From: an uncultured Thermoanaerobaculia bacterium
Lineage (GTDB): Bacteria > Acidobacteriota > Thermoanaerobaculia > Multivoradales > JAGPDF01
NCBI GenBank assembly: GCA_964595975.1
Contig: CAZQTL010000001.1
Location: forward strand, 3,164-67,163
DNA length: 64,000 nucleotides
Reading direction: 5' to 3'
Part shown: piece by piece, positions 52,624 to 64,000 of the stretch
Layout: each line of letters starts with the position of its first letter
How positions within the stretch are numbered: position 1 is the stretch's first letter
The notes under the pieces: model-generated
Database searches by the model: none
The model's input: the letters and a program-made list of their open reading frames with translations, nothing else
Told to the model about the DNA's origin: nothing
Position numbers and translations under genes: made by a program

Positions 52624-54435
52624 CTAATCTTCGGGTGGCCGGGCCCACTCCGGTTCGAGGTCGGGAAACGGCATGTCCCCCTCGACCCATCCCGGAAGCG
52701 CGCGAGTGCGCGGACCCAGGTCGATCAGCTCCCGCAGGCGGGAGCAATGCTGGCGAAAGCGTTCCTCGGCATAGTCGCCGCCCGTCCCCATAGTCACCAG
52801 GAACGGCCAGTCGGAGGCGGCGGCGAGCAGCATCTGGTTGAGAATCGCCCGCCGCCACTTCCGCGGCCCGCCCCAGCGCACCGCCGCGAAGGCGTGGCGC
52901 TCGAGGTCGGCGAGCTCGCGCCAGAACCACTCGGTCTGCGGGTTGACCCAGACGCGATGATCGCCACTCGCGCCCCAGGAACCCTCGGCGAAGAAGGCGC
53001 GGCGCAGCAGCGGATGGCTCGCCAGCTCGCGGTCGGGAGTGGTCGCCTCGACCGCCGCGCCAGGGGCCGCGAGCTCGAGGACCTTCTCGAGCCAGATCGG
53101 CCCTTCGAACCACCAGTGTCCGAAGAGCTCGGCGTCGAACGGACAGCAGATCAGTCCGTCGTTCATGCCGTCGAGTCCGGTGGCGAGCTCGATGAAGTGC
53201 TCGGCCTGCTCCTGGGCGCGCTTGCGCGCCTCTTCGGGCCAGTAGACGAGCTTGTCCATGAGGTCGGCTTCCGGATCGGTTACCCGCCAGAGCCGCAGCC
53301 CCGAGGGCCACTGGCGCTTGTGGAAGTCGAGGAAGGCGCCGTCTCCGGGATAGCCGCCCTGCCGCGACCAGACCTGGGCGGCGGTGCGCGCGTCGCGCAG
53401 GAACGCGGCGACGGCGCTCTGCCGGATCCAGTAGGGGTGGGGGTGCGGTCCGGAGGGCTCGACGATCTCCTCCGGACGCGTGTTGGCGCCGTAAGGGAAA
53501 GCGGGGTCGCCGCGCCGCAGCAGGTGGGCGTCGACCACCGTCCAGCGCATCCCCTGCTCGGAGAGGAACTGCTCGTTGCCGGGCCGCCCCTCCTCGAACG
53601 CGCCCGTCACCGGGTGTTGCCACGGCCCGCCGGGGCGGTAGGCGCACTCGGGCATCCAGCAGCCGCGCGGGTCGTCGCCGAACAGCTCGCGATGCTGCTC
53701 TTTGCCGGTGCGCAGGGCGAGCCGGATCAGTTTGGTGGTGTGGGCGAGCGGCAGATAGACGTGCGTCCCCGCCGAGGTGGCGAGCTCGAGGGCTCCGCTC
53801 TCGCCCAGCCGGGCGAGCGTCGCCACGAGGTCGTGGTCGAAGCGGTCCCAGATGGCGCGCAGCCGTTCGAACTCGCCGTGCCACCAGAGAGCGAGGGGGT
53901 GCTTGCGCCGTGCCTCCCAGGCCGACTTGGTGCGCTCGGTGAGATAGCGCTCGACGACCGCTTCGGTGCGCCCGTCGGCGAGCATCGCGGCGAGGATCGG
54001 CGTGACTTCGAAGGCGAACAGATGTCGCCGCCCGCGCGCGGCGAGGCGATCGGCCAGGTCGAGCAGCGGCAGGTAGCAGTGCACGATCGCCTCCGCCAGC
54101 CAGTCCTCGCCGTGCGGCCAGGTGCCGTGGCCGAGAACCCAGGGCAGGTGCGCGTGGAGGACGAAGGCGAGGCGGCGCGGCTGGCCGGCCGGGCCGGGTG
54201 CCGCCGGGTGCGGCGCGAGCTCCGGCAGCGGCTCGAGCAGCGGCCGCTGCAGGAACTGGATGCGGATCTCCTCCCGCTCCACCGGAATGGCCGGAAGCGG
54301 CGCGCGCCCGGCCTTCGGCTCCGGCCTGGCCGGCGCCTTCGGCGCGCCCTTCGCTGCGGCGGGGGGCCGGGCGACGGTCCCGGTCGCGGGCGGGCGCTTC
54401 CCCGGCGCTTTTCCCTTCGGTTTCCTGGGGCTCAT
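52624..54435 (-). CDS. GH57 family 1,4-alpha-glucan branching enzyme with a ~95-aa basic Pro/Ala/Lys-rich N-terminal extension
   Basis: The ATG at 54435 overlaps the DHH gene stop (ATGA). GH57 motifs VLHAHLPWV, CWMPECAY and FDAELFGHWWFEG are present. The track ORF (to 56988) is a read-through artefact. Confidence 0.8.
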   Translation of the reverse strand: MSPRKPKGKAPGKRPPATGTVARPPAAAKGAPKAPARPEPKAGRAPLPAIPVEREEIRIQFLQRPLLEPLPELAPHPAAPGPAGQPRRLAFVLHAHLPWVLGHGTWPHGEDWLAEAIVHCYLPLLDLADRLAARGRRHLFAFEVTPILAAMLADGRTEAVVERYLTERTKSAWEARRKHPLALWWHGEFERLRAIWDRFDHDLVATLARLGESGALELATSAGTHVYLPLAHTTKLIRLALRTGKEQHRELFGDDPRGCWMPECAYRPGGPWQHPVTGAFEEGRPGNEQFLSEQGMRWTVVDAHLLRRGDPAFPYGANTRPEEIVEPSGPHPHPYWIRQSAVAAFLRDARTAAQVWSRQGGYPGDGAFLDFHKRQWPSGLRLWRVTDPEADLMDKLVYWPEEARKRAQEQAEHFIELATGLDGMNDGLICCPFDAELFGHWWFEGPIWLEKVLELAAPGAAVEATTPDRELASHPLLRRAFFAEGSWGASGDHRVWVNPQTEWFWRELADLERHAFAAVRWGGPRKWRRAILNQMLLAAASDWPFLVTMGTGGDYAEERFRQHCSRLRELIDLGPRTRALPGWVEGDMPFPDLEPEWARPPED

Positions 54436-55517
54436 GGCAACTGGCGCTCCGGCGGCTCGGGAGCGGCGAGCTCGACCTTGGCGAGATCGATCGCCGCGAG
54501 GCGCTCCGGGTTCTTCTTGAGCGCCCGGGCGAAGCGCAGGGCGAGCATACGTTCGATCGCCCGTCCGCCGTCGGCTGCGGTCTTCGGGATGGTGACGAAA
54601 CCCCCGGCCATGGTGCCGTGGCCGCCCCCCTTGCCGAGCAGGCCGATCAGCCGCCGCATGAGATTGCCGGCGTCGGCGCGCGCATTGGTGGTGCGGATCG
54701 AGAGGTAGACGCGGTCGGCGTGGCTGCCGGTGCACAGCGACCAGGTCTTGCCCTCCATGCGGAGAAGCAGATCGGCGATCTCCGGCACGATGTCGGGTTG
54801 GTCGACCTCGCCCAGGTTCGAAACCACGAGGTTGCCGACGCCGGCCAGGTTCTCGAGCGCCCGGTGGAGGTTGCGGAAGTAGACCAGCGGCAGGCGGGCG
54901 CTCTGGATGCGCGCCAGCATCCGTCGGTCGATGTGCGGCAGCAGGGCGTCGAACGCCGCATGGTCCGGGCCGGCCGCCTCGCGGCCGAAGTCCTGGGTCT
55001 CCGAGCGGATGGCGTAGACCAGGCCGGTGGCGAGCGCCCGGGAAGGCTTCAGTCCGCTCGCGTCGAGGTACTCGGCGAGGATCGTGGCGGTCGCGCCGTA
55101 GCGCGGACGCACGTCGACCGTGGCGGCTGCCAGCGTCGACTTGCGCAGCGGGTGGTGGTCGATGACCAGGTCGGGGACGATGGTCTTCGGCAGTTGCGAA
55201 TTCCCCGACCAGGGCTGGCAGTCGATCATGGCGAACGAGCTGTAGTTCCGCTTGTTGACGTTGCGCAGATGGGAGAGCGGCAGCCTCAGGCTGCGGACCA
55301 TCTCGCGGTTCTCGGCGCGGCCGATGATGCCGCCGTAGGCCACCGTGACGGAACGCTTGAAGCGCCGCCGCAGGATGAGCGCCAGGGCCGCGGTGGCGGC
55401 CAGGGCATCGGGGTCCGGGTTGTCGTGAGTCAGGACGAGCCAGCGGCCGCGCTTCGGACTGGCCTCGATCCGTTCCGCGAGGGCGGCGAAACGGACCCTC
55501 GTCTCCTCGGTCGACAT
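54432..55517 (-). CDS. DHH/DHHA1 family phosphoesterase (NrnA-like)
   Basis: 361 aa. Motifs LVLTHDNPDPDALA, IDHH and GKGGGHGTMAGG are present. Confidence 0.8.
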   Translation of the reverse strand: MSTEETRVRFAALAERIEASPKRGRWLVLTHDNPDPDALAATAALALILRRRFKRSVTVAYGGIIGRAENREMVRSLRLPLSHLRNVNKRNYSSFAMIDCQPWSGNSQLPKTIVPDLVIDHHPLRKSTLAAATVDVRPRYGATATILAEYLDASGLKPSRALATGLVYAIRSETQDFGREAAGPDHAAFDALLPHIDRRMLARIQSARLPLVYFRNLHRALENLAGVGNLVVSNLGEVDQPDIVPEIADLLLRMEGKTWSLCTGSHADRVYLSIRTTNARADAGNLMRRLIGLLGKGGGHGTMAGGFVTIPKTAADGGRAIERMLALRFARALKKNPERLAAIDLAKVELAAPEPPERQLP

Positions 55518-55608
55518 GGGCCCCGGATTGTAGCAGCGGCGCTGCTGCGCTCCTGGCCCGCGCTCCGCTATACTGCGGCGCGCATCCTGTTGATCGAGAC
55601 GCCTTTCC

Positions 55609-56829
55609 TTGGCCCGAGTCCTCTTCCTTTCGCCCGGCTATCCCAGCGAGATGCCGCATTTCGTCCGCGCCCTGGCCGAGGTCGGCGCGGAGGTCCTGGG
55701 CGTCGGTGACCAGCCAGCGGGGACGCTCGCGGCCGAAACCCGGGGCGCCCTGACGGACTACCTGCGGGTGCGGACGCTGTGGGACGAAGCGACGCTGGTC
55801 GAGGAGGTCTCGCGCTGGCTCGCGGGCCGCACGCTCGACCGGGTCGAGTGTCTGTGGGAACCCGGCATGCTGCTCGCCGCGCGACTGCGCGAAGCGCTGC
55901 ACGTTCCCGGACTGACGGTCGCCCAGACCGTGCCCTTCCGCAACAAGGAAGAGATGAAGCGGCGGCTCGACGCCGCCGGGATTCGCACGCCGCGCCATCT
56001 GACGGCGGTCGACGAAGCCGGAATCCGCGCCGCCGCCGAGCGCATCGGCTTCCCGCTCATCCTGAAGCCGATCGACGGCGCCGGCTCGGCCGACACCTAC
56101 CGGGTGACCGACGCAGCCGAGCTCGAGCGCGCCCTGCCGAAGGTGCGGCACGTCCGGGAGCTCTCGGTGGAGGAGTTCATCGACGGCGAGGAGTACACCT
56201 TCGACACGGTGTCGATCGCCGGCCGTCCGGCCTACTACAACATCGCCTGGTACCGCCCCCGGCCGCTGCGGGCGCGTTCCGAGGAGTGGATCAGCCCGCA
56301 GGTCGTCGCCCTGCGCGACCCGGACCAGCCGCAGCTGCGGGGCGGCGTCGAGATGGGGTTCGACGTTCTGGCGGCGCTCGGCTTCGAGTCGGGCTTCACC
56401 CACATGGAGTGGTACCAGAAGGCCGACGGCGAAGTGGTCTTCGGCGAGATCGGCGCGCGGCCGCCGGGCGCCCATCAGGTCGACCAGATGAACTATGCCT
56501 GCGACATCGACGTCTTCCGCGGCTGGGCCGATGCCGTCTGCTTCGGTCGCTTCCGCGAGAACGTGCGTCGGCGCTACAACGTGGCGACGATCTACAAGCG
56601 CGCGACGGGCGAAGGGCGGATCCAGCGCATCGAGGGGTTCGAGGAGTGGAAGGCCCGCCACGGCGCGGCGCTCGTCTGGGACAACCTCCTGCCGGTGGGT
56701 GCGCCGCGCCGCAACTGGAAGCAGACCCTGGTTTCCGACGGCTTCGTGATTCTCCGGCATCCGGATCTCGCCGTCACCCTGGCCATGGCCGACGAGTTCG
56801 GCGCGGATGTGCGGCTCTTCGCTGCGTAA
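55609..56829 (+). CDS. ATP-grasp domain protein, paralogue 1 of 3 (unassigned carboxylate-amine ligase)
   Basis: 406 aa with a TTG start. ATP-grasp core motifs are present: GFPLILKPIDGAGSADTYRV, VEEFIDGEEYTFDT and HMEWYQKADGEVVFGEIGARPPGA. Confidence 0.75.
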   Translation: MARVLFLSPGYPSEMPHFVRALAEVGAEVLGVGDQPAGTLAAETRGALTDYLRVRTLWDEATLVEEVSRWLAGRTLDRVECLWEPGMLLAARLREALHVPGLTVAQTVPFRNKEEMKRRLDAAGIRTPRHLTAVDEAGIRAAAERIGFPLILKPIDGAGSADTYRVTDAAELERALPKVRHVRELSVEEFIDGEEYTFDTVSIAGRPAYYNIAWYRPRPLRARSEEWISPQVVALRDPDQPQLRGGVEMGFDVLAALGFESGFTHMEWYQKADGEVVFGEIGARPPGAHQVDQMNYACDIDVFRGWADAVCFGRFRENVRRRYNVATIYKRATGEGRIQRIEGFEEWKARHGAALVWDNLLPVGAPRRNWKQTLVSDGFVILRHPDLAVTLAMADEFGADVRLFAA

Positions 56830-56845
56830 GAGAACAAGGAGAGAG

Positions 56846-58066
56846 ATGTCATCGGTCGTCTTCGTCGCGCCCTTCTTTCTCGACACGACGCTGCGCTTCG
56901 TCGAGGCGGTCGCCGATCTGCCCGGCGTCCGCACCGGTCTGATCAGCCAGGACCCCGCGGAGCGTCTCCCGCCGGGCCTGCGGTCCAAGCTCGCGGCGCA
57001 CTACCGCATCGCCGACGGACTCGATCCGCAGCAGATCGCCGACGCCGTGCGCGGCCTCGCGCGGCAGATCGGTCCGCCGCAGCGGCTCATCGGCGCCCTC
57101 GAACAGCTGCAGGTGCCGCTCGGCGAGGTGCGCGATGCCCTCGGCATCGACGGGATGGGCGCGGAAGTGGCGAAGAACTTCCGCGACAAGGCGCGCATGA
57201 AGACCGTGCTGCAGCGCGCCGGCGTGCCCTGCGCGCGCCACCAGCGCGTGACCAGCGACGCCGAGGCCTGGGGCTTCGTCGAAGGCGTGGGCTATCCGGT
57301 GGTGCTCAAGCCGACCTCCGGCGCCGGGGCGAAGAGCACCTTCCGCGTCGGCGACGCCGGCGAGATGCGGTCGGCGCTGGCGCAGGTCCGGCCGTCGCCG
57401 GAGCGCCAGGCCGTGGTCGAGGAGTTCGTCGTCGGCGACGAGTTCTCGTTCGACACCGTTTCGATCCGCGGCCGGCCGGTCTGGCACTCGCTCTCGTACT
57501 ACCTGCCGGCGCCGCTCAACGTCGTCGACAACCCCTGGATCCAGTGGTGCGTGCTGATTCCGCGCGAGATCGACCACCCGCGCTTCGACGACATCCGCCG
57601 GGTCGGCTTCCGCGCCCTGGAGGTGCTCGGCATGGGCACCGGCCTGTCGCACATGGAGTGGTTCCGCAGGGCCGACGGTTCGGTGCTGGTCTCCGAAGTC
57701 GGCGCGCGGCCGCCGGGGGCGCAGATCACGTCGCTGATCTCCTACGCCCACGACATCGACTTCTATCGCGCCTGGGCGCGCCTGGTGGTGAAGGAAGAGT
57801 TCGATCCGCCGCCGCACCGGTTCGCTGCCGGCGGAGCCTACCTGCGCGGCCAGGGCCAGGGGCGCGTCCGCGCGGTGCACGGCCTGGCCGAGGTGCAGCG
57901 CGAGCTCGGACAGCTGATCGTCGAGGCGAAGCTGCCCCAGGTCGGCCAACCGCAGTCGTCGAGCTACGAGGGAGAGGGGTATATCCTCTTCCGCCATCCC
58001 GAGACGGCGGTGGTGGAGGCGGCGCTGAAACGCACGATCTCGACCGTGAGAGTGGAGCTGGGATGA
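56846..58066 (+). CDS. ATP-grasp domain protein, paralogue 2 of 3 (diverged member)
   Basis: The ATG at 56846 is preceded by AAGGAGAGAG. Motifs GYPVVLKPTSGAGAKSTFRV, VEEFVVGDEFSFDT and HMEWFRRADGSVLVSEVGARPPGA are present. Confidence 0.75.
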   Translation: MSSVVFVAPFFLDTTLRFVEAVADLPGVRTGLISQDPAERLPPGLRSKLAAHYRIADGLDPQQIADAVRGLARQIGPPQRLIGALEQLQVPLGEVRDALGIDGMGAEVAKNFRDKARMKTVLQRAGVPCARHQRVTSDAEAWGFVEGVGYPVVLKPTSGAGAKSTFRVGDAGEMRSALAQVRPSPERQAVVEEFVVGDEFSFDTVSIRGRPVWHSLSYYLPAPLNVVDNPWIQWCVLIPREIDHPRFDDIRRVGFRALEVLGMGTGLSHMEWFRRADGSVLVSEVGARPPGAQITSLISYAHDIDFYRAWARLVVKEEFDPPPHRFAAGGAYLRGQGQGRVRAVHGLAEVQRELGQLIVEAKLPQVGQPQSSSYEGEGYILFRHPETAVVEAALKRTISTVRVELG

Positions 58067-59286
58067 CCATGAACGTGCTGATGCTGTCGCCGGGATATCC
58101 GGCCGAGATGCCCTACTTCACCCGCGGGTTGTCGCTCGTCGGGGCGAAGGTGATCGGGCTCGGCGACCAGCCGAAGGAGATGCTTCCTCCGGTCGCCCGC
58201 GAGCACGTCGCGCATCATCTGCAGGTGCGCTCGCTCTGGGACGAAGCGGCGGTCGTGCAAGAAGTGCAGCGGCTGGCCCGCCAGATCCGCATCGACCGCG
58301 TCGAGTGCCTGTGGGAACCCGGGATGATCCTCGCCGCGAAACTCCGGGAAGCGCTGGAGCTCCCCGGCATGACGGTCGCCCAGACCATCCCGTTCCGCGA
58401 CAAGGAGATCATGAAGCAGCGCCTGGACGCGGCCGGCATCCGGACTCCGCGCCATTTTCGCGCCAACACCGAGGATCAGGTGCGCGACGCCGCGGAGCGC
58501 ATCGGCTATCCGGTCATCGTCAAACCGATCGCCGGCGCCGGCTCCGCCGACACGCACCGCTGCGACTCGCGGGCCGAGCTCGAACGCGCCCTGAAGCTGT
58601 CGAAGCACGTCCAGGAGGTCTCGGTCGAGGAGTTCATCGAAGCGGAGGAGTTCACCTTCGACACCATCTGCGCCGGCGGCAGGATGTACTTCGAGAACAT
58701 CTGCTGGTACCGCCCGCGGCCCCTCATCCAGCGCCAGAACGAGTGGATCAGCCCGCAGACCGTCTGCCTGCGCGAGCTTGACGTGCCCGATCTCGCCGGC
58801 GGGCGGAAGATGGGGCGGGAGGTCCTCGCGGCGCTCGGCTTCGAGACCGGCTTCACCCACATGGAGTGGTACCGGAAGGCCGACGGCGAAGTCGTCTTCG
58901 GCGAGATCGGCGGCCGTCCGCCGGGGGCGCGCACGGTCGACATCATGAACTACTGCACCGACAACGACACCTACGTCGGGTGGGCGGAGGCCGCCTGCCT
59001 CGGACGGGTCGAACGCCGCTTCGAGCGCAAGTGGAACGTGGTGATCACCTTCAAGCGCGCCCGCGGCGAGGGCCGCATCCAGCGCGTGGCCGGCCTGGAG
59101 AAGTTGCTCGCCGAGTTCGGCCGCTATGTCGTCGAAGTCGACCTGACTCCGATCGGGGCGCAGCGCCGCAACTGGAAGCAGACCCTGATCGGCGACGGCT
59201 ACATCGTCGTGCGGCACCCCGACCTCTCGACCGCCCTGCACATGGGCGAGCGCATGGCGCAGGACGTTCAGCTCTTCGCCGGCTGA
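58063..59286 (+). CDS. ATP-grasp domain protein, paralogue 3 of 3 (close to paralogue 1)
   Basis: The ATG at 58063 overlaps the previous stop (ATGA). The protein is colinear with paralogue 1 throughout (e.g. DRVECLWEPGMILAAKLREAL, RLDAAGIRTPRH, RRNWKQTLIGDGYIVVRHPDL). Confidence 0.75.
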   Translation: MTMNVLMLSPGYPAEMPYFTRGLSLVGAKVIGLGDQPKEMLPPVAREHVAHHLQVRSLWDEAAVVQEVQRLARQIRIDRVECLWEPGMILAAKLREALELPGMTVAQTIPFRDKEIMKQRLDAAGIRTPRHFRANTEDQVRDAAERIGYPVIVKPIAGAGSADTHRCDSRAELERALKLSKHVQEVSVEEFIEAEEFTFDTICAGGRMYFENICWYRPRPLIQRQNEWISPQTVCLRELDVPDLAGGRKMGREVLAALGFETGFTHMEWYRKADGEVVFGEIGGRPPGARTVDIMNYCTDNDTYVGWAEAACLGRVERRFERKWNVVITFKRARGEGRIQRVAGLEKLLAEFGRYVVEVDLTPIGAQRRNWKQTLIGDGYIVVRHPDLSTALHMGERMAQDVQLFAG

Positions 59287-59334
59287 GCGGCGACCTCCAG
59301 GGACCGTCGAACGCCGACTCGACACGGGACAGCC

Positions 59335-60954
59335 ATGGCCAAGACCGTTCTCTTCTCGCGCCTGCAGCGCCTGTTCGCCCTCTCCCGCGCCGCGCATCGC
59401 ACCGGCGTTCCGCCGCGCGAGGCGCTCGATCGCGCCCGCTCTGGCCCGACCCGTCGCGAGCTCGTCGCCGGTGCGACCGTCGTCGGCGCCGGCCTCGCGC
59501 TCGGTTGCGACCGCGTGCGCTCGCTGCTGCCGCGCAAGCTCGGCGGCGCGGCCCGCGAGGTGGCCATCGTCGGCGGTGGCATCGCCGGACTCACCTGCGC
59601 CTGGCGGTTGACGCAGGCGGGAGTGGCCGCGCGGATCTACGAAGCGCAGGACCGCATCGGCGGCCGGATGTGGTCGCTCACCGGCGCCTTCCCGGAGGGG
59701 CAGGTGTGCGAGCTCGGCGGCGAGCTGATCGACACCGGCCACGAGCGGATTCGCGCCCTGGCGGCGGAGCTCGGCCTCGAGCTCGACGACCTGTCGCTCT
59801 ACGAGTCCGGCCTGGCGAGGGATCTCTTCTGGTTCGACGGCCGGCAGTACGGCGACGCCGAGGTCGTCGAGGCCTTCACGCCGATCGCCGGGCGGATCGA
59901 TGCCGCCTGGGAGGCGATCACCGGCGAGACGGTCTCCTATCGCGAGCCGAATGGCGGCGAGACGATCGACAACCAGTCGATCGCCGAGTGGCTCGATGAA
60001 GCCGGGTGCACCGGCTGGTTTCGCAAGCTCCTCGATGTCGCCTACACCACGGAGTACGGCCTCGAGATCGGCGACCAGTCGGCGTGGAACCTGCTGATGA
60101 TGATCGACACCGAGCCCGATCCGTTCAAGGTGTTCGGCGACAGCGACGAGCGCTTCCACGTGCGCGGCGGCAACGACCTCATCCCGCGCCGTCTCGGCGA
60201 CCGCCTGGCCGGGCGGATCGAGACCGGCGTGCGCCTCGAGGCGGTGGCGGCGAAGAGCGACGGCTCCTACGTCCTGACGATGCGCCGCGGGGCCTCGACA
60301 TCCGAGGTCGCCGCCGAGCACGTCGTGCTCGCCTTGCCGTTCACTCTGCTGCGCGACGTGCGGCTCGACCTCTCCTTGCCGGCGATCAAGCGCAAGGCGA
60401 TCGCGGAGCTGGGTTACGGTACCAACGCCAAGCTGATGGTCGGATTCTCCGACCGCGTCTGGCGGCAGCCGCGCGCCGGCGGCGGTGGGGTGTCGGGGCG
60501 CGCACCGGGCTCGAACGGCAGCGTGCTCACCGACCTGCCGTTCCAGCTCACCTGGGAGGCGACGCGAATGCAGCCCGGAAAGGCCGGGATCCTGGTCTGC
60601 TACACCGGCGGCGAGCGCGGCGTCGAGCTCGGGCAGGGCACGTCCGCCGCGCAGTCCGAACGCTTCGCTCGCGAGCTCGAGCGGGTCTTCCCAGGGGTTT
60701 CGGAGCGGCGGCTGGGCGAGGCCCGGTTCCACTGGCCGAGCTTCGAGTTCACCCGCGGCAGCTACGCCAGCTATCGCGTCGGCCAGTGGACGACGATCGG
60801 CGGTGCCGAAGGGGAGCGGGTGGGGAACCTGCATTTTGCCGGCGAGCACACCTCGGCCGACTTCCAGGGCTTCATGGAAGGCGGCTGCGAGTCCGGCGAG
60901 CGGGCGGCGCGGGAGATTCTCGGCGATCTCGGCATCACCCCGCCGGCGGCGTAA
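59335..60954 (+). CDS. Flavin-containing amine oxidase family protein with Tat-like signal and lipobox
   Basis: 539 aa. TRRELVAGATVVGAGLALGC combines a twin-arginine, a hydrophobic region and an L-A-L-G-C lipobox. The FAD dinucleotide fold is VAIVGGGIAGLTCAWRL...YEAQDRIGGR, and the C-terminal FAGEHTS motif is present. Confidence 0.75.
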   Translation: MAKTVLFSRLQRLFALSRAAHRTGVPPREALDRARSGPTRRELVAGATVVGAGLALGCDRVRSLLPRKLGGAAREVAIVGGGIAGLTCAWRLTQAGVAARIYEAQDRIGGRMWSLTGAFPEGQVCELGGELIDTGHERIRALAAELGLELDDLSLYESGLARDLFWFDGRQYGDAEVVEAFTPIAGRIDAAWEAITGETVSYREPNGGETIDNQSIAEWLDEAGCTGWFRKLLDVAYTTEYGLEIGDQSAWNLLMMIDTEPDPFKVFGDSDERFHVRGGNDLIPRRLGDRLAGRIETGVRLEAVAAKSDGSYVLTMRRGASTSEVAAEHVVLALPFTLLRDVRLDLSLPAIKRKAIAELGYGTNAKLMVGFSDRVWRQPRAGGGGVSGRAPGSNGSVLTDLPFQLTWEATRMQPGKAGILVCYTGGERGVELGQGTSAAQSERFARELERVFPGVSERRLGEARFHWPSFEFTRGSYASYRVGQWTTIGGAEGERVGNLHFAGEHTSADFQGFMEGGCESGERAAREILGDLGITPPAA

Positions 60955-61020
60955 ACCGCGTAGAATCCGACCCGTTCGCAATCGGGCGTGCGCAGGCAGG
61001 AGCGGAGGGCGGGTCGACCG

Positions 61021-61863
61021 ATGGGGCTCAAAGAGGTCCTGAGCAAGCTCAAGCTGGTGGAGGTCACGGAGCCCGCCGAACCCGAGCCCGGGCTGGGCGG
61101 CGCTGCCGCCTCGGGGCGCGCGCCGGCCGCTTCGCGGTCCGATCCGCCGGAGCTCGCGGAGCTGCTGCGCAATCTCCCGCCGCCGAAGCCGATCGACGAG
61201 GCGGCGCTGGCGAAGCGACGCCGCGAGGGAACGGCTCCGGCGCCGCAGCGTTCTGCCGGAGCGGCGCCAGCCGCCGAGCGTTCGGGCGCAGCTTCTGCTG
61301 TGGTCGAGGTCGGGAGCGGAGCTGCCGCTGCCGCGCAGACCTCCGACGACGAGCTCGAGCTACCCGACTTTCCAGAGGTCTACCGCGCCGCCGGCATCGG
61401 CGAGCCGCCGCACGGCTTCACCGCCTTCAAGATCCTCGAGATGCTGCAGAGTCCAGGCCTCGCCGAGCTCGCGCCGCAGGCCAAGGCGGCCGCCCTCGCC
61501 GGCTTCCTGAGGATGAACCCCGGCGGACCGGTGGCGATCGGCGAGGTCATCCAGGACGCCGTGCGTCGCGATCAGGCGCTCGACCGCTTCGAGCAGTTCC
61601 TGCAGGCCAAGCTCGCCGAGCGCCAGGCCGCGGCGGAGCGCGCCAACGCCCGGCTCCAGGCGGAGATCGACGCGCTCACCGAACGTCACCGGGCGACGAT
61701 GGCAGCGAACGTGCGCGCGGTTTCCGAGCTCACGGCGCGACTCGCCGAGTGGAGCGCCGCCAAACGCGTCGAAGAGCGCAAGCTCCAGTCCGCCGTCGCT
61801 CCGTTCGTGGACGGCAATCCGATCAGCACCGATTCCGCCGGCGGCACGAAGTCCGGCTCCTGA
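61021..61863 (+). CDS. Hypothetical protein, first gene of the PspA/IM30 operon
   Basis: The ATG at 61021 has GGAGGG 11 nt upstream. The protein has an amphipathic N-terminus (MGLKEVLSKLKLVEV), an Ala/Pro-rich linker, and a helical/coiled-coil C-terminal half (AERQAAAERANARLQAEIDALTERH). Confidence 0.55.
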   Translation: MGLKEVLSKLKLVEVTEPAEPEPGLGGAAASGRAPAASRSDPPELAELLRNLPPPKPIDEAALAKRRREGTAPAPQRSAGAAPAAERSGAASAVVEVGSGAAAAAQTSDDELELPDFPEVYRAAGIGEPPHGFTAFKILEMLQSPGLAELAPQAKAAALAGFLRMNPGGPVAIGEVIQDAVRRDQALDRFEQFLQAKLAERQAAAERANARLQAEIDALTERHRATMAANVRAVSELTARLAEWSAAKRVEERKLQSAVAPFVDGNPISTDSAGGTKSGS

Positions 61864-61874
61864 GGAGAACTTCA

Positions 61875-62633
61875 ATGTTCAGTCGTCTCGTCCGTGTGAT
61901 CAAGTCCTGGCTCGGCTTCTTCATCTCCTATGCCGAAGACCCCGAGGTCATGCTGCAGGAGTCGATCGAGGAGATGCGCAACACGCTGCCGAAGCTGAAT
62001 CAGATCCTGGTGACCACCCGCGCCACCGAGATTCGGCTCGAGCAGGACCTGTTGGAGGCCCAGCGCAAGGAGAAGTCGCTGGTTGCGTCCATCAAGACCG
62101 CTCTCGCCGACGGCAGTCCGGAAGCCCGGCGCCTGGCGGAGGACGACGCCTCTACGCTGCAACAGGTCCGCCTCGAAGTGCAGTCGACCACCGAGCAGCT
62201 CGAGGCGGCGAAGAACGCCTTCGAGAACGCCAAGCTGTCGGTCGACGACATCAAGGAGAAGCTGCGCCAGAAGATCGAGCAGGCGCGCAAGGCGATCGCC
62301 GAGTCGAAGAAGGCCGAGGTCATGCGCAGTGCCGCGAACGCCCTGGCCGAGCTCGACACCTACGGCACGGCGGCGACCACCGACAAGTATCTCGACCAGA
62401 TCCGTCAGAAGGTGGCGGAGTCGAAGGCCTCGGTCGAGGTCGCGACCGGTGGGCTCGACACCGAGCGCATCAAGCTCGAGCGCAAGTCGCGCCAGCTGCA
62501 GGCGCAGTCGATCCTCTCCGAGTTCGAGGTCGAGATGGGCATCAAGAAGCCCGACGCGGTCAAGGAGGCAGCGCCGTTCCCGGCCGAGAGCGCGAGCCAG
62601 GCCACCCCCCAGAAGCAGCCGGAGCGCGGCTAG
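61875..62633 (+). CDS. pspA: PspA/IM30 (Vipp1) family protein
   Basis: The ATG at 61875 is preceded by GAGGAG. MFSRLVRVIKSWLGFFISYAEDPEVMLQESIEEMRNTL matches the PspA N-terminal helix plus the AEDPEKML-type motif. The rest of the protein is long coiled coil. Confidence 0.85.
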   Translation: MFSRLVRVIKSWLGFFISYAEDPEVMLQESIEEMRNTLPKLNQILVTTRATEIRLEQDLLEAQRKEKSLVASIKTALADGSPEARRLAEDDASTLQQVRLEVQSTTEQLEAAKNAFENAKLSVDDIKEKLRQKIEQARKAIAESKKAEVMRSAANALAELDTYGTAATTDKYLDQIRQKVAESKASVEVATGGLDTERIKLERKSRQLQAQSILSEFEVEMGIKKPDAVKEAAPFPAESASQATPQKQPERG

Positions 62634-62645
62634 GGTCGCCAGCGT

Positions 62646-63515
62646 TTGAGCTTCCTCGAACGTCATCCCGCCCTGAAGAAGGCGGTCGCCAACCAGTACC
62701 AGGCGATCCTCGCCGCGGGCGCGATCGGGTTTTCCGCGGTCACCCTCTCGCCGCTGCCGCTGATGCTCTGGGCGGGGCTGCAGATGATGACGCTGCCGTT
62801 CCTCGTCGAGCGGCTCAAGCGACGCCTGGAGATCGAACGCAAGTTCGCCGCCCGCGAGGCCGTCGAGATGTCGCAGGACCAGCAGCTCGCCGCGCTGCCG
62901 GCGGCGGCGCGCAATCGCCTGCAGCGCGTGCAGCAGCTGTGCGAGCGCATCCAGTCGAATTACAAGGGACTGTCGCCCGCCAGCCAGGGGGTGATGGCCG
63001 ATCAGGCGGCGAAGTTCGACGCCGTGCTCGCCTCGTTCCTGCGCCGCCTCTGGCTGCTGCAGAAGTACGACGAGATGGCGGCGGCCTCGGACGACGGCCG
63101 GGTGCGCCAGGAGATCGAGCGCCTCGACCGCCAGCTTTCGACGGCGGAGCTCGCGCCGCGGGTTCGCGAGGCGCTCGAGAAGAACCTCGAGATTCAGCGC
63201 CAGCTCGTCCTGGCGGTGGAGAAGAACGAACAGAACAGCGCCGCCCTGGCGGCCGAGCTCGATTCCCTCGAGGCGCTGCTGCAGCTGCTGCTGCAGAAGT
63301 CGGTCGCCGCCACCGACGCCACGGCGTTCTCGGCCGAGATCGACGACGTGCTGGCGCAGGTCGAAGCCGACCACGCGTCGGTGGAGGAGATGGAGCGCAT
63401 GCTGGGCGCGCTGCCGCAGGTCGAAGAGCGCGAGCCGCTGGGGCCGCGGTTGCGCCTCCCGGTCCTGCCGCCGGTGCCGCCGCCTCCGCCGGAACGGTCG
63501 CGGAGCCGGCGATGA
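62646..63515 (+). CDS. Membrane-anchored coiled-coil protein (hypothetical), PspA operon
   Basis: 289 aa with a TTG start. It has an N-terminal hydrophobic hairpin (AILAAGAIGFSAVTLSPLPLMLWAGLQMMTLPFLV), about 200 aa of heptad-like helix, and a Pro-rich basic tail. Confidence 0.55.
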   Translation: MSFLERHPALKKAVANQYQAILAAGAIGFSAVTLSPLPLMLWAGLQMMTLPFLVERLKRRLEIERKFAAREAVEMSQDQQLAALPAAARNRLQRVQQLCERIQSNYKGLSPASQGVMADQAAKFDAVLASFLRRLWLLQKYDEMAAASDDGRVRQEIERLDRQLSTAELAPRVREALEKNLEIQRQLVLAVEKNEQNSAALAAELDSLEALLQLLLQKSVAATDATAFSAEIDDVLAQVEADHASVEEMERMLGALPQVEEREPLGPRLRLPVLPPVPPPPPERSRSRR

Positions 63516-64000
63516 GTGACGCGCCGGCCAAGGGCTTCTTCAGCAGCCTCCCCGGTTGGGCGGCGACGCTCGCCCGGACGGTGGCCGCGAAGCAGGCGAA
63601 CACCTTCGTGATCCACGGCCTGCCGGCCGATCTCATCCCGGTGCGGCAGGAGTCGGGGCTCTCCTTCCAGCTGCTCGACAACTTCCTGACCGAAGTGCTG
63701 TTCGCTTCCTGGCCCTCCCGCCTGACTTACAACCGCGCCGAGGGCCTGGGCTTCGCGACGCCGCAGGCGAAGCAGCATTTCATGGAGCGCCTGAAGGCCT
63801 ACGACGCGGTGCACGGCACTTCCTGGGGCGAGGCGCTGCCGCGCGACGCCGCCAACGCCTTCGCCCTGCTCGACTCGTATTTTCGCCATTGCGCGACCCT
63901 CGCACCCGCCCGGCCGGTGGTGCTCCTCCTGCCGTTCGCCGAAACGCTGGTCCCCAACGGCGAGGCGTCCTACCGCACGCCGGAGGATCGCGCCGTGCTG
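63512..64000 (+). CDS. Hypothetical protein, 5' part only (possibly the degenerate N-terminal domain of an ATPase); runs off the window
   Basis: The ATG at 63512 overlaps the previous stop (ATGA). The frame is open to 64000 (163 codons). No Walker A motif appears in the visible part. Strand-like segments TFVIHGLPADL and VVLLLPFAETL are present. Confidence 0.5.
   Translation, partial: MSDAPAKGFFSSLPGWAATLARTVAAKQANTFVIHGLPADLIPVRQESGLSFQLLDNFLTEVLFASWPSRLTYNRAEGLGFATPQAKQHFMERLKAYDAVHGTSWGEALPRDAANAFALLDSYFRHCATLAPARPVVLLLPFAETLVPNGEASYRTPEDRAVL

Follow-up and report, generated by a model that had tools for sequence, protein, structure and literature searches.

A conserved PspA operon with a two-domain AAA+ ATPase in Thermoanaerobaculia, a candidate membrane-remodelling module

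The analysed stretch of DNA (the window, 64,000 nucleotides from an uncultured Thermoanaerobaculia bacterium) ends in four genes on the forward strand, namely g1 (61021-61863, an ORF of 280 aa), the PspA gene (61875-62633, 252 aa), g3 (62646-63515, 289 aa, with a TTG start) and g4 (63512-64000), of which the window end leaves the first 163 codons. By the ORF coordinates, g1 and PspA are separated by 11 nt, PspA and g3 by 12 nt, and g3 and g4 overlap by 4 nt, which is exactly the spacing that an earlier sequence-only reading of this DNA had given for four close-set genes. The overlap and the two short gaps are suggestive of translational coupling and would support the view of these genes as a module. 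The metagenome contig L001 matches the last 10 kb of the window at 99.66 % identity and was used to extend g4; the full-length gene encodes a two-domain AAA+ ATPase of 583 aa. This gene anatomy is established. A FAD amine oxidase (59335-60954, forward strand, 539 aa) is encoded upstream; it is a recurrent neighbour and stands outside the four-gene core. The same reading had recognised none of the classical Psp or Lia partners. Indeed, hmmscan against Pfam and NCBIfam found no PspB/C/D/F, LiaI/F/G or Toastrack domain in g1, g3 or g4, and the precomputed Pfam annotation of L001 contained no PspB, PspC, PspD, LiaI/F or Toastrack within +/-10 kb.

The second gene had been called a clear PspA/IM30 homologue, and PF04012 matched its product over aa 2-213 of 252 with E=1.9e-19 and 70.6 bits (cutoff 33.9). 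The profile search against the PDB returned the Vipp1/PspA chains 7o3w, 8qhv and 6zvr over aa 1-204 (E=4.6e-8). Judged by these profile matches, the protein is a PspA/IM30 homologue within the ESCRT-III superfamily and belongs to the PspA/Vipp1 branch rather than the Snf7 branch. Its helix alpha0 (aa 2-19, FSRLVRVIKSWLGFFISY) is amphipathic, with muH 0.58 and a mean hydrophobicity of 0.28, and is conserved in orthologues. The C-terminus carries the motif SEFEVEMGI, which reads (S/Q)EFE(V/A)EMGI across lineages.

The g3 protein runs from an N-terminal hairpin through a helical coiled-coil body and the motif SVEEMERMLG to a Pro-rich, basic C-terminus. The hairpin corresponds to a hydropathy peak at aa ~19-55 (nt 62700-62810) with basic residues on either side, and its KD17 of 1.76 is borderline for a membrane segment. 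The AlphaFold2 model was all-helical (pLDDT 72.8 overall, 80-93 for aa 80-250) with a disordered Pro-rich basic tail, and the coiled-coil body is predicted to be cytoplasmic. The length, the helical coiled coil and the Pro-rich tail described before were recovered, and it is the membrane hairpin of that description that is borderline. Across lineages the C-terminal motif is V(E/R)EME..(L/M), followed by the disordered tail. The g3 family comprises 467 cluster representatives at E<=1e-3, and g3 matched no Pfam or NCBIfam family. Homology of g3 to PspA or Snf7 gave no significant signal: there was no Snf7 or PspA_IM30 Pfam match among 83 family members, no ESCRT-III chain among the PDB profile matches and nothing at E<0.1 when the model was searched by Foldseek, and hhalign of the g3 family against PspA gave a collinear alignment (g3 95-241 / PspA 2-178) with E = 0.012-0.055 and a probability of 1-3.6 %.

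The g1 protein is an orphan that had no match in Pfam, NCBIfam, the PDB (profile) or Foldseek, and no homology to PspA or Snf7 was detected. Foldseek, which had been proposed for the partner proteins, matched neither g1 nor, at E<0.1, g3. The AlphaFold2 model of g1 (mean pLDDT 73, above 90 for the long helix) showed a low-confidence short N-terminal helix, two linkers rich in Ala and Pro that are disordered, a conserved small domain of helices at aa ~115-170 and a single helix of ~90 residues at aa 173-264. The 280 aa, the Ala/Pro linkers and the C-terminal long helix agreed with the sequence-only reading, whereas the amphipathic label of the N-terminal helix is weakly supported by its muH of 0.29. 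In the family alignment the N-terminal motif MGLKEVLSKLKLVE and the C-terminal motif AVAPFV..NPI[ST] are conserved.

The last ORF had been described as a P-loop-NTPase-like fold without a Walker A motif, the active domain being expected past the window end. The first part of this description is right because the profile of aa 1-290 matched the AAA domains of AFG2, FtsH, paraplegin and p97 in the PDB (E = 5.5e-5 to 5e-3) and the P-loop lacks GK[ST]. This degenerate AAA domain, of which the window contains only part, has FVIHGLPADL (nt 63605-63634) as its degenerate P-loop and VVLLLPFAET (nt 63917-63946) as its degenerate Walker B. The P-loop site of the N-domain is (F/Y)xxHGxxxDL in the family, and its main variants among 74 members are without GK[ST]. 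The hhalign comparison of the N-domain with the C-domain was in the correct register, with an E of 0.018 that alone is not significant. As expected, the active AAA domain (aa ~320-530) is located past the window end, and it was read on L001 (L001:10867-12618); the full-length protein matched PF00004 with E=1.4e-23, plus AAA_lid_3. It contains a variant Walker A (GPVGSAKT), Walker B (DEAD), a pore loop (MWVG) and arginine fingers (RQGR), all of which are invariant in 16 orthologues. Among the 74 family members, Walker B DEAD, pore loop 1 (M/Q)W(V/Q)G and the arginine fingers KRQGRAEE are invariant, and the canonical Walker A GPVGTGKT is found in 47/74. GPVGSAKT, in which Ala replaces the Gly preceding Lys, belongs to the own lineage of this bacterium, and the sensor-1 position in the family is A, C or S instead of the usual Asn. 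The domain identities and the intact motor motifs are established; because the Walker A is a variant and the sensor-1 Asn is replaced, ATPase competence of g4 is presumed. The motifs of the active domain are hallmarks expected of a substrate-threading unfoldase, and a protein with an inactive N-tier and an active C-tier is built like those two-tier AAA machines in which one tier is inactive.

The NCBIfam scores of g4 were 83 bits for CDC48 (cutoff 803), 73 for FtsH, 64 for PAN and 43 for CdvC (cutoff 650), and its best 60 PDB matches were all of Cdc48/p97/VAT type or related (AFG2, NVL, Rix7, 'vesicle-fusing ATPase'), with no Vps4 among these 60. No MIT domain was matched by Pfam, aa 1-290 being occupied by the degenerate AAA domain, and no HTH was detected by Pfam or NCBIfam. 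Orthology of g4 to Vps4/CdvC was considered and rejected, given the lack of an MIT domain and a CdvC score below those of CDC48, FtsH and PAN. On these comparisons g4 appears analogous, not orthologous, to Vps4.

The g1-PspA-g3-g4 order was kept in 37 species-level Thermoanaerobaculia genomes at loci ascertained through g3, and g1 lies upstream of PspA in most g3-ascertained loci. In 35 metagenome loci chosen via the ATPase alone, each reaching 4.3 kb or more upstream of it, PspA was found in 26, g3 in 21 and g1 in 10. Synteny of the partners with PspA elsewhere, which the sequence-only reading had named as a check, was thus found in both samples. The four-gene order persists in a divergent lineage (L046/L050) in which the identity is 32-34 % for g3, 36-37 % for g1 and 50 % for the ATPase, and g3 is directly upstream of the ATPase in this lineage as well as in the g3-ascertained and the ATPase-ascertained loci. 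Overall, the g1-PspA-g3-ATPase order spans protein identities from 97 % down to 32-57 %. It could be argued that PspA fortuitously adjoins a housekeeping AAA+ gene and coiled-coil ORFs that are unrelated to it, since no domain is recognisable in g1 or g3 and helical ORFs of low complexity are frequent in DNA with 70 % G+C. But g1 and g3 are conserved families with invariant motifs, and the order kept over this range of identities and the frequency of PspA in loci chosen via the ATPase make chance adjacency very improbable, effectively refuted by synteny. The gene order recurs across dozens of genomes and metagenome contigs that are independent of one another, which argues for more than chance, and the conserved linkage itself is established. 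The linkage has exceptions. Neither PspA nor g3 was nearby in 8/35 ATPase loci, so the ATPase family is not obligatorily tied to PspA; among the genes near the ATPase in such loci are those for a PEGA-domain Ser/Thr kinase, a hybrid histidine kinase and a DeoC aldolase. A further subgroup (L055-L063) has g1, PspA and the ATPase without g3, and g3 therefore cannot be essential to the core reaction.

The amine oxidase matched Amino_oxidase, DAO and NAD_binding_8 in Pfam, and its N-terminus combines a Tat-like signal (TRRELV) with a hydrophobic stretch and with the lipobox LALGC. Orthologues with 42-43 % identity are directly downstream of the ATPase in L046 and L050, and orthologues also occupy this position in L077, L078, L080 and L083-L085. 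The Tat motif and the lipobox are present in the amine oxidases of all three lineages (3/3). The amine oxidase and SBP+LysM genes lie beside the module in two deeply divergent lineages in rearranged positions. Other variants of the ATPase locus have SBP+OmpA, or an enoyl-CoA hydratase plus CNNM/CorC, as neighbours. An alternative is that the module is an assembly chaperone for the insertion or export of envelope proteins, with the amine oxidase and the peptidoglycan-binding solute-binding protein (SBP) as candidate clients and g4 as a foldase or holdase, not a disassemblase. Retention of both genes in two divergent lineages and the shared Tat motif and lipobox speak for it, and Ravi et al. (PMC11237479) read PspA-AAA+ associations as chaperone-like assembly machinery. 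However, most ATPase loci have neither client (the amine oxidase is found in 10/80 and the SBP+LysM protein in 6/80), the neighbours differ in the other variants, and the intact pore loops indicate threading or unfolding instead of holdase activity. We regard the chaperone alternative as improbable.

We slightly favour ATP-driven remodelling of PspA polymers by g4 as the most likely mechanism. PspA would form its polymers on the inside of the cytoplasmic membrane, in which g3 would sit by its short hairpin with the long coiled coil pointing into the cytoplasm. The AAA+ protein g4, which is soluble, Cdc48-like and made of two tiers, the N-terminal one degenerate and the C-terminal one active, would most likely bind the conserved C-terminal tails of PspA and/or g3, thread them through its pore loops and extract subunits, so that the polymer is disassembled, recycled or remodelled at the expense of ATP. 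Such an action would be analogous to that of Vps4 on ESCRT-III and derived from another branch of the classical AAA clade. Elements like the conserved C-terminal motifs of PspA and g3 are what AAA unfoldases and MIT-type adaptors recognise. We infer which protein is the substrate and whether the effect is assembly or disassembly, and likewise the roles of the two partners: g3 is probably a membrane anchor or nucleator and possibly a co-polymer partner, and g1, a dimeric-looking coiled coil whose short terminal motifs are conserved, probably serves as an adaptor or regulator. Several points count against ATP-driven remodelling of PspA by g4. Besides the ATPase loci that lack PspA or g3, the variant Walker A and the replaced sensor-1 Asn, the ATPase has no MIT-like recognition domain, and weak ATP hydrolysis and partner-independent membrane remodelling have been reported for PspA itself (PMC11746142).

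The relation between PspA and g4 could also be the reverse. PspA, with g1 and g3, may regulate g4 by keeping this Cdc48/FtsH-like ATPase in an inactive state at the membrane; once released by envelope stress, g4 would extract or unfold other, damaged membrane or secretory proteins in a quality control like that of Msp1, Cdc48 and FtsH. E. coli offers a parallel in PspF, whose AAA+ domain is bound and inhibited by PspA. For the PspF system, the role of PspA as AAA+ adaptor and inhibitor is established (PMC7619361), and g4 scores nearest to the Cdc48, FtsH and PAN unfoldases, not Vps4/CdvC. The family members without PspA imply that the ATPase can have other clients, and exported proteins (the Tat-lipoprotein amine oxidase and SBP+LysM) recur beside the module. 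On the other hand, the conserved core has no protease domain or partner protease and g4 itself carries no membrane anchor; PspF and PspA make contact through a surface loop of bEBP-type AAA+ domains, an equivalent of which would have to exist in g4, and the conserved, disordered C-terminal tails of PspA and g3 suit substrates or recruiters more than inhibitors. We consider such regulation of g4 by PspA rather unlikely, and remodelling of PspA by g4 is preferred.

The arrangement of PspA with a two-domain AAA+ protein is already in the literature. Ravi et al. (2024, mSystems, PMC11237479) described "PspA ... TM+Snf7 -> inactive-AAA+AAA" operons by comparative genomics, with Clostridium sp. BNL1100 (AEY64320/AEY64321) and Ca. 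Handelsmanbacteria (OGG56892) as exemplars, and reached the same reading; no experimental work on such operons was found in the literature. As in the operons described there, PspA here adjoins a two-domain AAA+ protein with an inactive N-terminal copy, a membrane-anchored helical protein ('SIG+TM+Snf7' there, g3 here) is directly upstream of the ATPase, and extra coiled-coil proteins and a solute-binding plus peptidoglycan-binding protein are nearby. The Snf7 label given there to the TM protein was not recovered for g3 (hhalign probability 3.6 % at most). Loci of the L111 type match the Handelsmanbacteria layout given there (PspA -> SBP+OmpA -> g3 -> ATPase; PMC11237479), and g4 is equated with the ATPases of that paper (AEY64320.1 and the neighbour of OGG56892.1) by architecture and this gene order. 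The present operon differs in having LysM instead of OmpA as the peptidoglycan-binding domain, no ABC transporter, the Walker A variant GPVGSAKT, and the additional g1 family and Tat-lipoprotein amine oxidase, neither of which was found mentioned in the passages of that paper considered here.

The locus shares features with several known systems. Like the ESCRT-III/Vps4 (CdvB/CdvC) systems found in archaea and eukaryotes, it encodes a superfamily polymer protein beside a classical-clade AAA+ unfoldase with intact pore loops, and the conserved tail motifs of PspA and g3 could serve recruitment; unlike them, it has a polymer protein of the PspA/Vipp1 and not the Snf7 branch, no ESCRT-I or ESCRT-II winged-helix components, and an ATPase with an extra degenerate AAA tier and no MIT domain. 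With PspF-PspABC(DE) and LiaIH-GFSR it shares a PspA/IM30 effector with an amphipathic helix alpha0, and the classical Psp/Lia systems likewise have an AAA+ partner (PspF there) and small membrane partners recruiting PspA, whereas g4 belongs to the classical AAA clade rather than to the sigma-54 enhancer-binding proteins. The best sequence matches of the active domain of g4, with E about 1e-29 over the whole protein, are Cdc48/p97/VAT, AFG2, NSF and Pex1/6, two-tier machines with tandem AAA domains, some of which have one catalytically weak or inactive tier. But g4, at 583 aa, is considerably shorter, lacks a double-psi barrel N domain, is far under the family cutoffs (83 vs 803 bits for CDC48) and has a genomic context dedicated to PspA.

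The four-gene set is somewhat more probably than otherwise a self-contained envelope-stress and membrane-remodelling module of this Thermoanaerobaculia (Acidobacteriota) bacterium. A bolder reading, possible at most, is a complete and independently evolved bacterial counterpart of ESCRT-III/Vps4, in which a composite membrane polymer of PspA, nucleated by hairpin-anchored g3, would be recognised by its MIM-like C-terminal tails and remodelled or disassembled by a Cdc48-derived two-tier unfoldase with g1 as adaptor, and which in the own lineage would be wired to periplasmic sensing or metabolism via the Tat-exported amine oxidase and the peptidoglycan-binding SBP. Vps4-like activity has been regarded as absent from bacteria in a review (PMC7619361), and such an independent counterpart, if true, would overturn that position. 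The PspA-g3-g4 operon is a good candidate for the missing bacterial ESCRT-III/Vps4 counterpart.

The four genes near the 3' end of the window form a compact plus-strand cluster, which consists of g1 (61021-61863, 280 aa), a PspA homologue (61875-62633, 252 aa), g3 (62646-63515, 289 aa, TTG start) and the ATPase gene g4, which starts at 63512 and is cut at the window end after 163 codons. According to the ORF list, the translations and, for PspA, the PF04012 match, the successive genes are separated by 11 nt and 12 nt and then overlap by 4 nt; the ORFs, spacings and PspA identity had been described accurately in the sequence-only reading. The G+C content of this region is about 70 %, at which both the promoter scan (0 promoter-like sites in the cluster) and the terminator scan (terminator-like sites not above shuffled controls) are uninformative. 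The long overlapping ORFs on both strands, such as 52624-56988 (minus strand, 1454 aa) and 57964-60981 (1005 aa), are artefacts of the 70 % G+C; where they appear, a GH57/branching-enzyme gene and a DHH/DHHA1 phosphoesterase were called on the minus strand of the matching contig.

An exact-sequence look-up of g3 retrieved metagenome contigs with the same locus, including L001, which matches the final 10 kb of the window at 99.66 % identity and reaches about 11 kb further. The full-length g4 on this contig (L001:10867-12618) encodes 583 aa. No Pfam or NCBIfam family matched the g4 fragment inside the window, and the full-length protein contains an AAA domain (PF00004) at aa 328-453 (E=1.4e-23) with an AAA lid after it, which bears out the prediction that the active domain would lie past the window end. 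In 16 orthologues none of its motifs varies: GPVGSAKT for Walker A, VVIDEAD for Walker B, MWVG for pore loop 1 and KRQGRAEE for the arginine-finger pair. Across 74 more distant relatives the Walker B and the arginine fingers are still invariant, the pore loop reads (M/Q)W(V/Q)G, and the usual sensor-1 Asn position holds A, C or S. The Ser-Ala variant of Walker A is a lineage peculiarity, because the canonical GPVGTGKT was found in 47 of these 74 relatives and GPVGSAK(T/S) in 27. The best solved relatives of g4 among the matches listed were Cdc48/p97/VAT and AFG2. Since the NCBIfam scores (CDC48 83 bits, FtsH 73, PAN 64, CdvC 43) were all far under the family cutoffs, g4 is assigned to the classical AAA clade and to no named family; judged from its sequence, it is not a Vps4/CdvC orthologue. 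A role as a PspF-like transcription activator was rejected, as g4 falls in the classical AAA clade rather than the NtrC type and has no recognisable HTH. A defence-system reading was also rejected: the only PADLOC matches were weak generic AAA ones (TRIP13, IetA) for g4 and a coiled-coil one (JetC) for PspA, and g1 and g3 had none.

The N-terminal part of g4 is, on profile evidence, a degenerate AAA domain. A profile built from aa 1-290 of 16 g4 orthologues matched the AAA domains of AFG2, FtsH, paraplegin and p97 in the PDB (E = 5.5e-5 to 5e-3), and these matches are properly in register and take in Walker B, sensor-1, the arginine fingers and the lid. The P-loop position is occupied by FVIHGLPADL and the Walker B position by LLLPFAET, and GK[ST] occurs in none of the main family variants, in agreement with the earlier suggestion that g4 begins with a P-loop-like fold that lacks a Walker A. 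The claim rests on the PDB profile matches because the hhalign comparison of the N-domain with the C-domain (internal duplication), which was in the right register, was not significant alone (E=0.018).

The identity of PspA is clear, with a PF04012 match (E=1.9e-19) well above the gathering score and a family profile which matched the solved Vipp1/PspA chains 7o3w, 8qhv and 6zvr over aa 1-204 (E=4.6e-8). Its N-terminus is the strongly amphipathic helix alpha0 (muH 0.58), and the C-terminal motif (S/Q)EFE(V/A)EMGI is kept even in lineages in which PspA is only 57 % identical. The g3 protein contains two short hydrophobic segments at aa ~19-55, parted by SPLP, with a borderline maximum 17-residue Kyte-Doolittle mean of 1.76. 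Basic residues flank the pair on both sides, which suggests a hairpin whose two ends are cytoplasmic. The AlphaFold2 model from a 32-sequence alignment was all-helical (pLDDT 80-93 for aa 80-250), and the C-terminus has a conserved V(E/R)EME..(L/M) motif and then a Pro-rich, disordered stretch that ends in basic residues. At E<=1e-3 the family counts 467 of 1.84 billion cluster representatives, and no Pfam or NCBIfam family matched g3. In Ravi et al. (PMC11237479) the gene at this position is labelled 'SIG+TM+Snf7', but a Snf7/PspA relationship was not reproduced here for g3: no Snf7/PspA Pfam match was found among 83 family members (scans of 32 and 51), the g3 profile found no Snf7/PspA relative among the PDB sequences, and Foldseek of the model against the PDB returned only generic helical bundles and coiled coils (best E 0.23). 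The hhalign comparisons of g3 with narrow and broad PspA alignments gave a probability of 1-3.6 %, with the best alignment collinear with PspA alpha0-alpha4. The g1 family is an orphan one, for which a word-indexed search found more than 500 relatives. Apart from disordered linkers, the parts of g1 are an N-terminal conserved motif (MGLKEVLSKLKLVE), a small conserved helical domain, a single helix of ~90 residues predicted at pLDDT >90 and the C-terminal conserved motif AV(A/G)(P/H)FV..NPI(T/S). Pfam, NCBIfam, the PDB profile search, Foldseek and hhalign against PspA returned nothing for its identity.

A g3-profile scan of one genome per GTDB species gave 37 loci, in which g3 is present by construction. 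Nearly all carry the label Thermoanaerobaculia or Acidobacteriota, with one labelled Holophagales and one Burkholderiales, and the order g1-PspA-g3-ATPase is kept in almost all of them. The g3 ascertainment was corrected by a metagenome scan ascertained on the ATPase, which found at least 561 relatives; 80 loci with 43-93 % identity were kept, and 35 of them had 4.3 kb or more of sequence ahead of the ATPase and were informative. PspA was present in 26/35, g3 in 21/35 and g1 in 10/35, while 8/35 had neither PspA nor g3. The ATPase family is widespread and is PspA-linked in about three quarters of the informative loci, and chance adjacency of these genes is effectively excluded.

Several layouts of the locus were observed. 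Type i, g1-PspA-g3-ATPase, is that of this window and L007-L043. In type ii (L055-L063, L067, L068) the layout is g1-PspA-ATPase, and because g3 is absent from the whole locus it is dispensable in some close relatives; the ATPases of this subgroup are 73-77 % identical to g4, and PspA is followed directly by the ATPase at a 4-nt to ~50-nt spacing. Type iii (L046, L050, L077, L078, L084) has g1-PspA-g3-ATPase-amine oxidase-SBP+LysM, where SBP is a solute-binding protein. Type iv (L096 type, some contigs from TARA marine samples) reads PspA-small PspA-tail-like protein-g3-enoyl-CoA hydratase-CNNM/CorC-ATPase, and type v (L111 type) reads PspA-(SBP+OmpA)-x-g3-ATPase, the layout published for Ca. 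Handelsmanbacteria. In type vi the ATPase adjoins a Ser/Thr kinase-PEGA protein (L086), a hybrid histidine kinase (L095) or DeoC (L091), in each case without PspA. The kinase at L086:2390-4879 is an 830-aa protein with a C-terminal PEGA domain and precedes the PspA-less ATPase, and a large ORF of ~800 aa lies upstream of the ATPase in L100 and L109; this may point to another role of the ATPase family, one tied to signalling. The small type iv protein (156 aa, L096:1432-1902, plus strand) occupies the same position between PspA and g3 in L093, L098, L099, L106 and L107, some of them TARA marine. Its similarity to the C-terminal part of the PspA profile is weak (E ~1e-6); it contains VKLEMGL, resembling the PspA tail motif EFEVEMGI, and it may be a free-standing tail or decoy. 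Distant g3 relatives (~26-31 % identity) at L044:2344-6187 and L047:1840-5492 have no PspA or ATPase nearby and sit behind a VWA plus solute-binding protein and a second SBP_bac_11 protein; the family of hairpin-anchored coiled-coil proteins is conserved in one further setting at least.

The amine oxidase gene lies just upstream of the module (window 59335-60954, plus strand), and a gene for an SBP_bac_3+LysM protein lies 2.5 kb downstream on the other strand (L001:15182-16147, minus strand). Orthologues of both, 41-44 % identical, are found immediately downstream of the ATPase in the divergent type iii loci. The amine oxidase N-terminus carries a Tat-like signal (SGPTRRELVAGATVVGAGLALGC) made up of an RR motif, a hydrophobic stretch and, at its end, a lipobox cysteine. 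These features are common to all three amine oxidases, and because the 42 % identical L046 and L050 orthologues share the Tat-like signal and the lipobox, this flavin enzyme is considered a conserved neighbour of the PspA-ATPase module and a predicted periplasmic lipoprotein. The module could act as a chaperone for the assembly or export of envelope proteins, for example this Tat amine oxidase, a role which we regard as improbable. The tRNA-Leu(GAG) of 93 nt called by ARAGORN inside the amine oxidase CDS (59823-59915, plus strand) is almost certainly spurious, a product of the G+C-rich coding sequence. In the SBP_bac_3+LysM protein the solute-binding domain is of the amino-acid type and is fused to LysM, a peptidoglycan-binding domain, at the C-terminus, and the protein is conserved near the module in two divergent lineages (orthologues at L046:6293-7399 and L050:6967-8046); it parallels the PBPB+OmpA protein of Ravi et al., which is also present in L111. 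Directly upstream of the amine oxidase are three tandem paralogous ATP-grasp genes of 406, 406 and 407 aa (window 55609-59286, plus strand; L001:2964-6641), with intervals of 16 nt and 48 nt and a single overlap of 4 nt, and with weak NCBIfam similarity to cyanophycin synthetase, D-Ala-D-Ala ligase and RimK-type ligases. The trio is confined to close relatives of the window locus, and because it is present only in these it is read as a separate cassette, probably for peptide or amide ligation. The next gene after the ATPase, 60 nt further on (L001:12679-13722, plus strand), encodes a 347-aa protein that carries five Sel1 repeats and, in a zinc-ribbon-like N-terminus, two CxxC pairs (CERCG ... 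CAVCG); it is likewise present only in the closest relatives.

The locus therefore joins a PspA-type polymer-forming protein, a coiled-coil protein with a predicted hairpin anchor and a two-tier AAA+ protein in tight, conserved linkage, with one ATPase tier dead and the other apparently live with its pore loops intact. The locus belongs to the class of PspA-linked double-AAA operons that comparative genomics had already defined. Ravi et al. (PMC11237479) described such operons in company with coiled-coil proteins, a PBPB+OmpA protein and a divergent Snf7 protein anchored in the membrane, and they proposed ATP-dependent membrane remodelling comparable to Snf7/Vps4; compared with the class as outlined there, the window lineage adds the g1 family, the Tat amine oxidase, LysM for OmpA and the Walker A variant. 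The association is thus already published, and this kind of system is experimentally uncharacterised: literature searches found no experimental work on a PspA-partnered classical AAA ATPase family. A 2025 review reported that bacteria appear to lack a Vps4-like ATPase (PMC7619361), Makarova et al. (2024) confined ESCRT systems (ESCRT-III with Vps4) to archaea and eukaryotes (PMC10936438), and for the remodelling of PspA-type polymers structural work invokes chaperones or the weak ATPase activity of PspA itself (PMC11746142).

We consider it somewhat better than an even chance that PspA and/or g3 are threaded by their conserved C-terminal tails through the ATPase, which would extract subunits and thereby disassemble, recycle or reshape the membrane-bound polymer, with g3 as the putative membrane anchor and g1 as the putative adaptor. 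The likeness to ESCRT-III/Vps4 would be one of working, as g4 has no MIT-like recognition domain and falls outside the Vps4/CdvC subfamily. The Ser-Ala Walker A of the window's lineage and the existence of PspA-less and g3-less variants of the ATPase locus also speak against a Vps4-like model. PspA might instead be a PspF-style inhibitor of the ATPase, which would act on other membrane clients; this we hold to be unlikely, though less so than the chaperone role. The compact four-gene system makes the disassembly or dynamic remodelling of bacterial ESCRT-III-like polymers such as PspA and Vipp1 directly testable, by reconstitution of ATP-driven PspA remodelling. If remodelling by the ATPase is confirmed, the pairing of an ESCRT-III-type polymer with an AAA+ unfoldase would have arisen at least two times, and the system would provide a handle on membrane repair in the abundant, little-studied Acidobacteriota.
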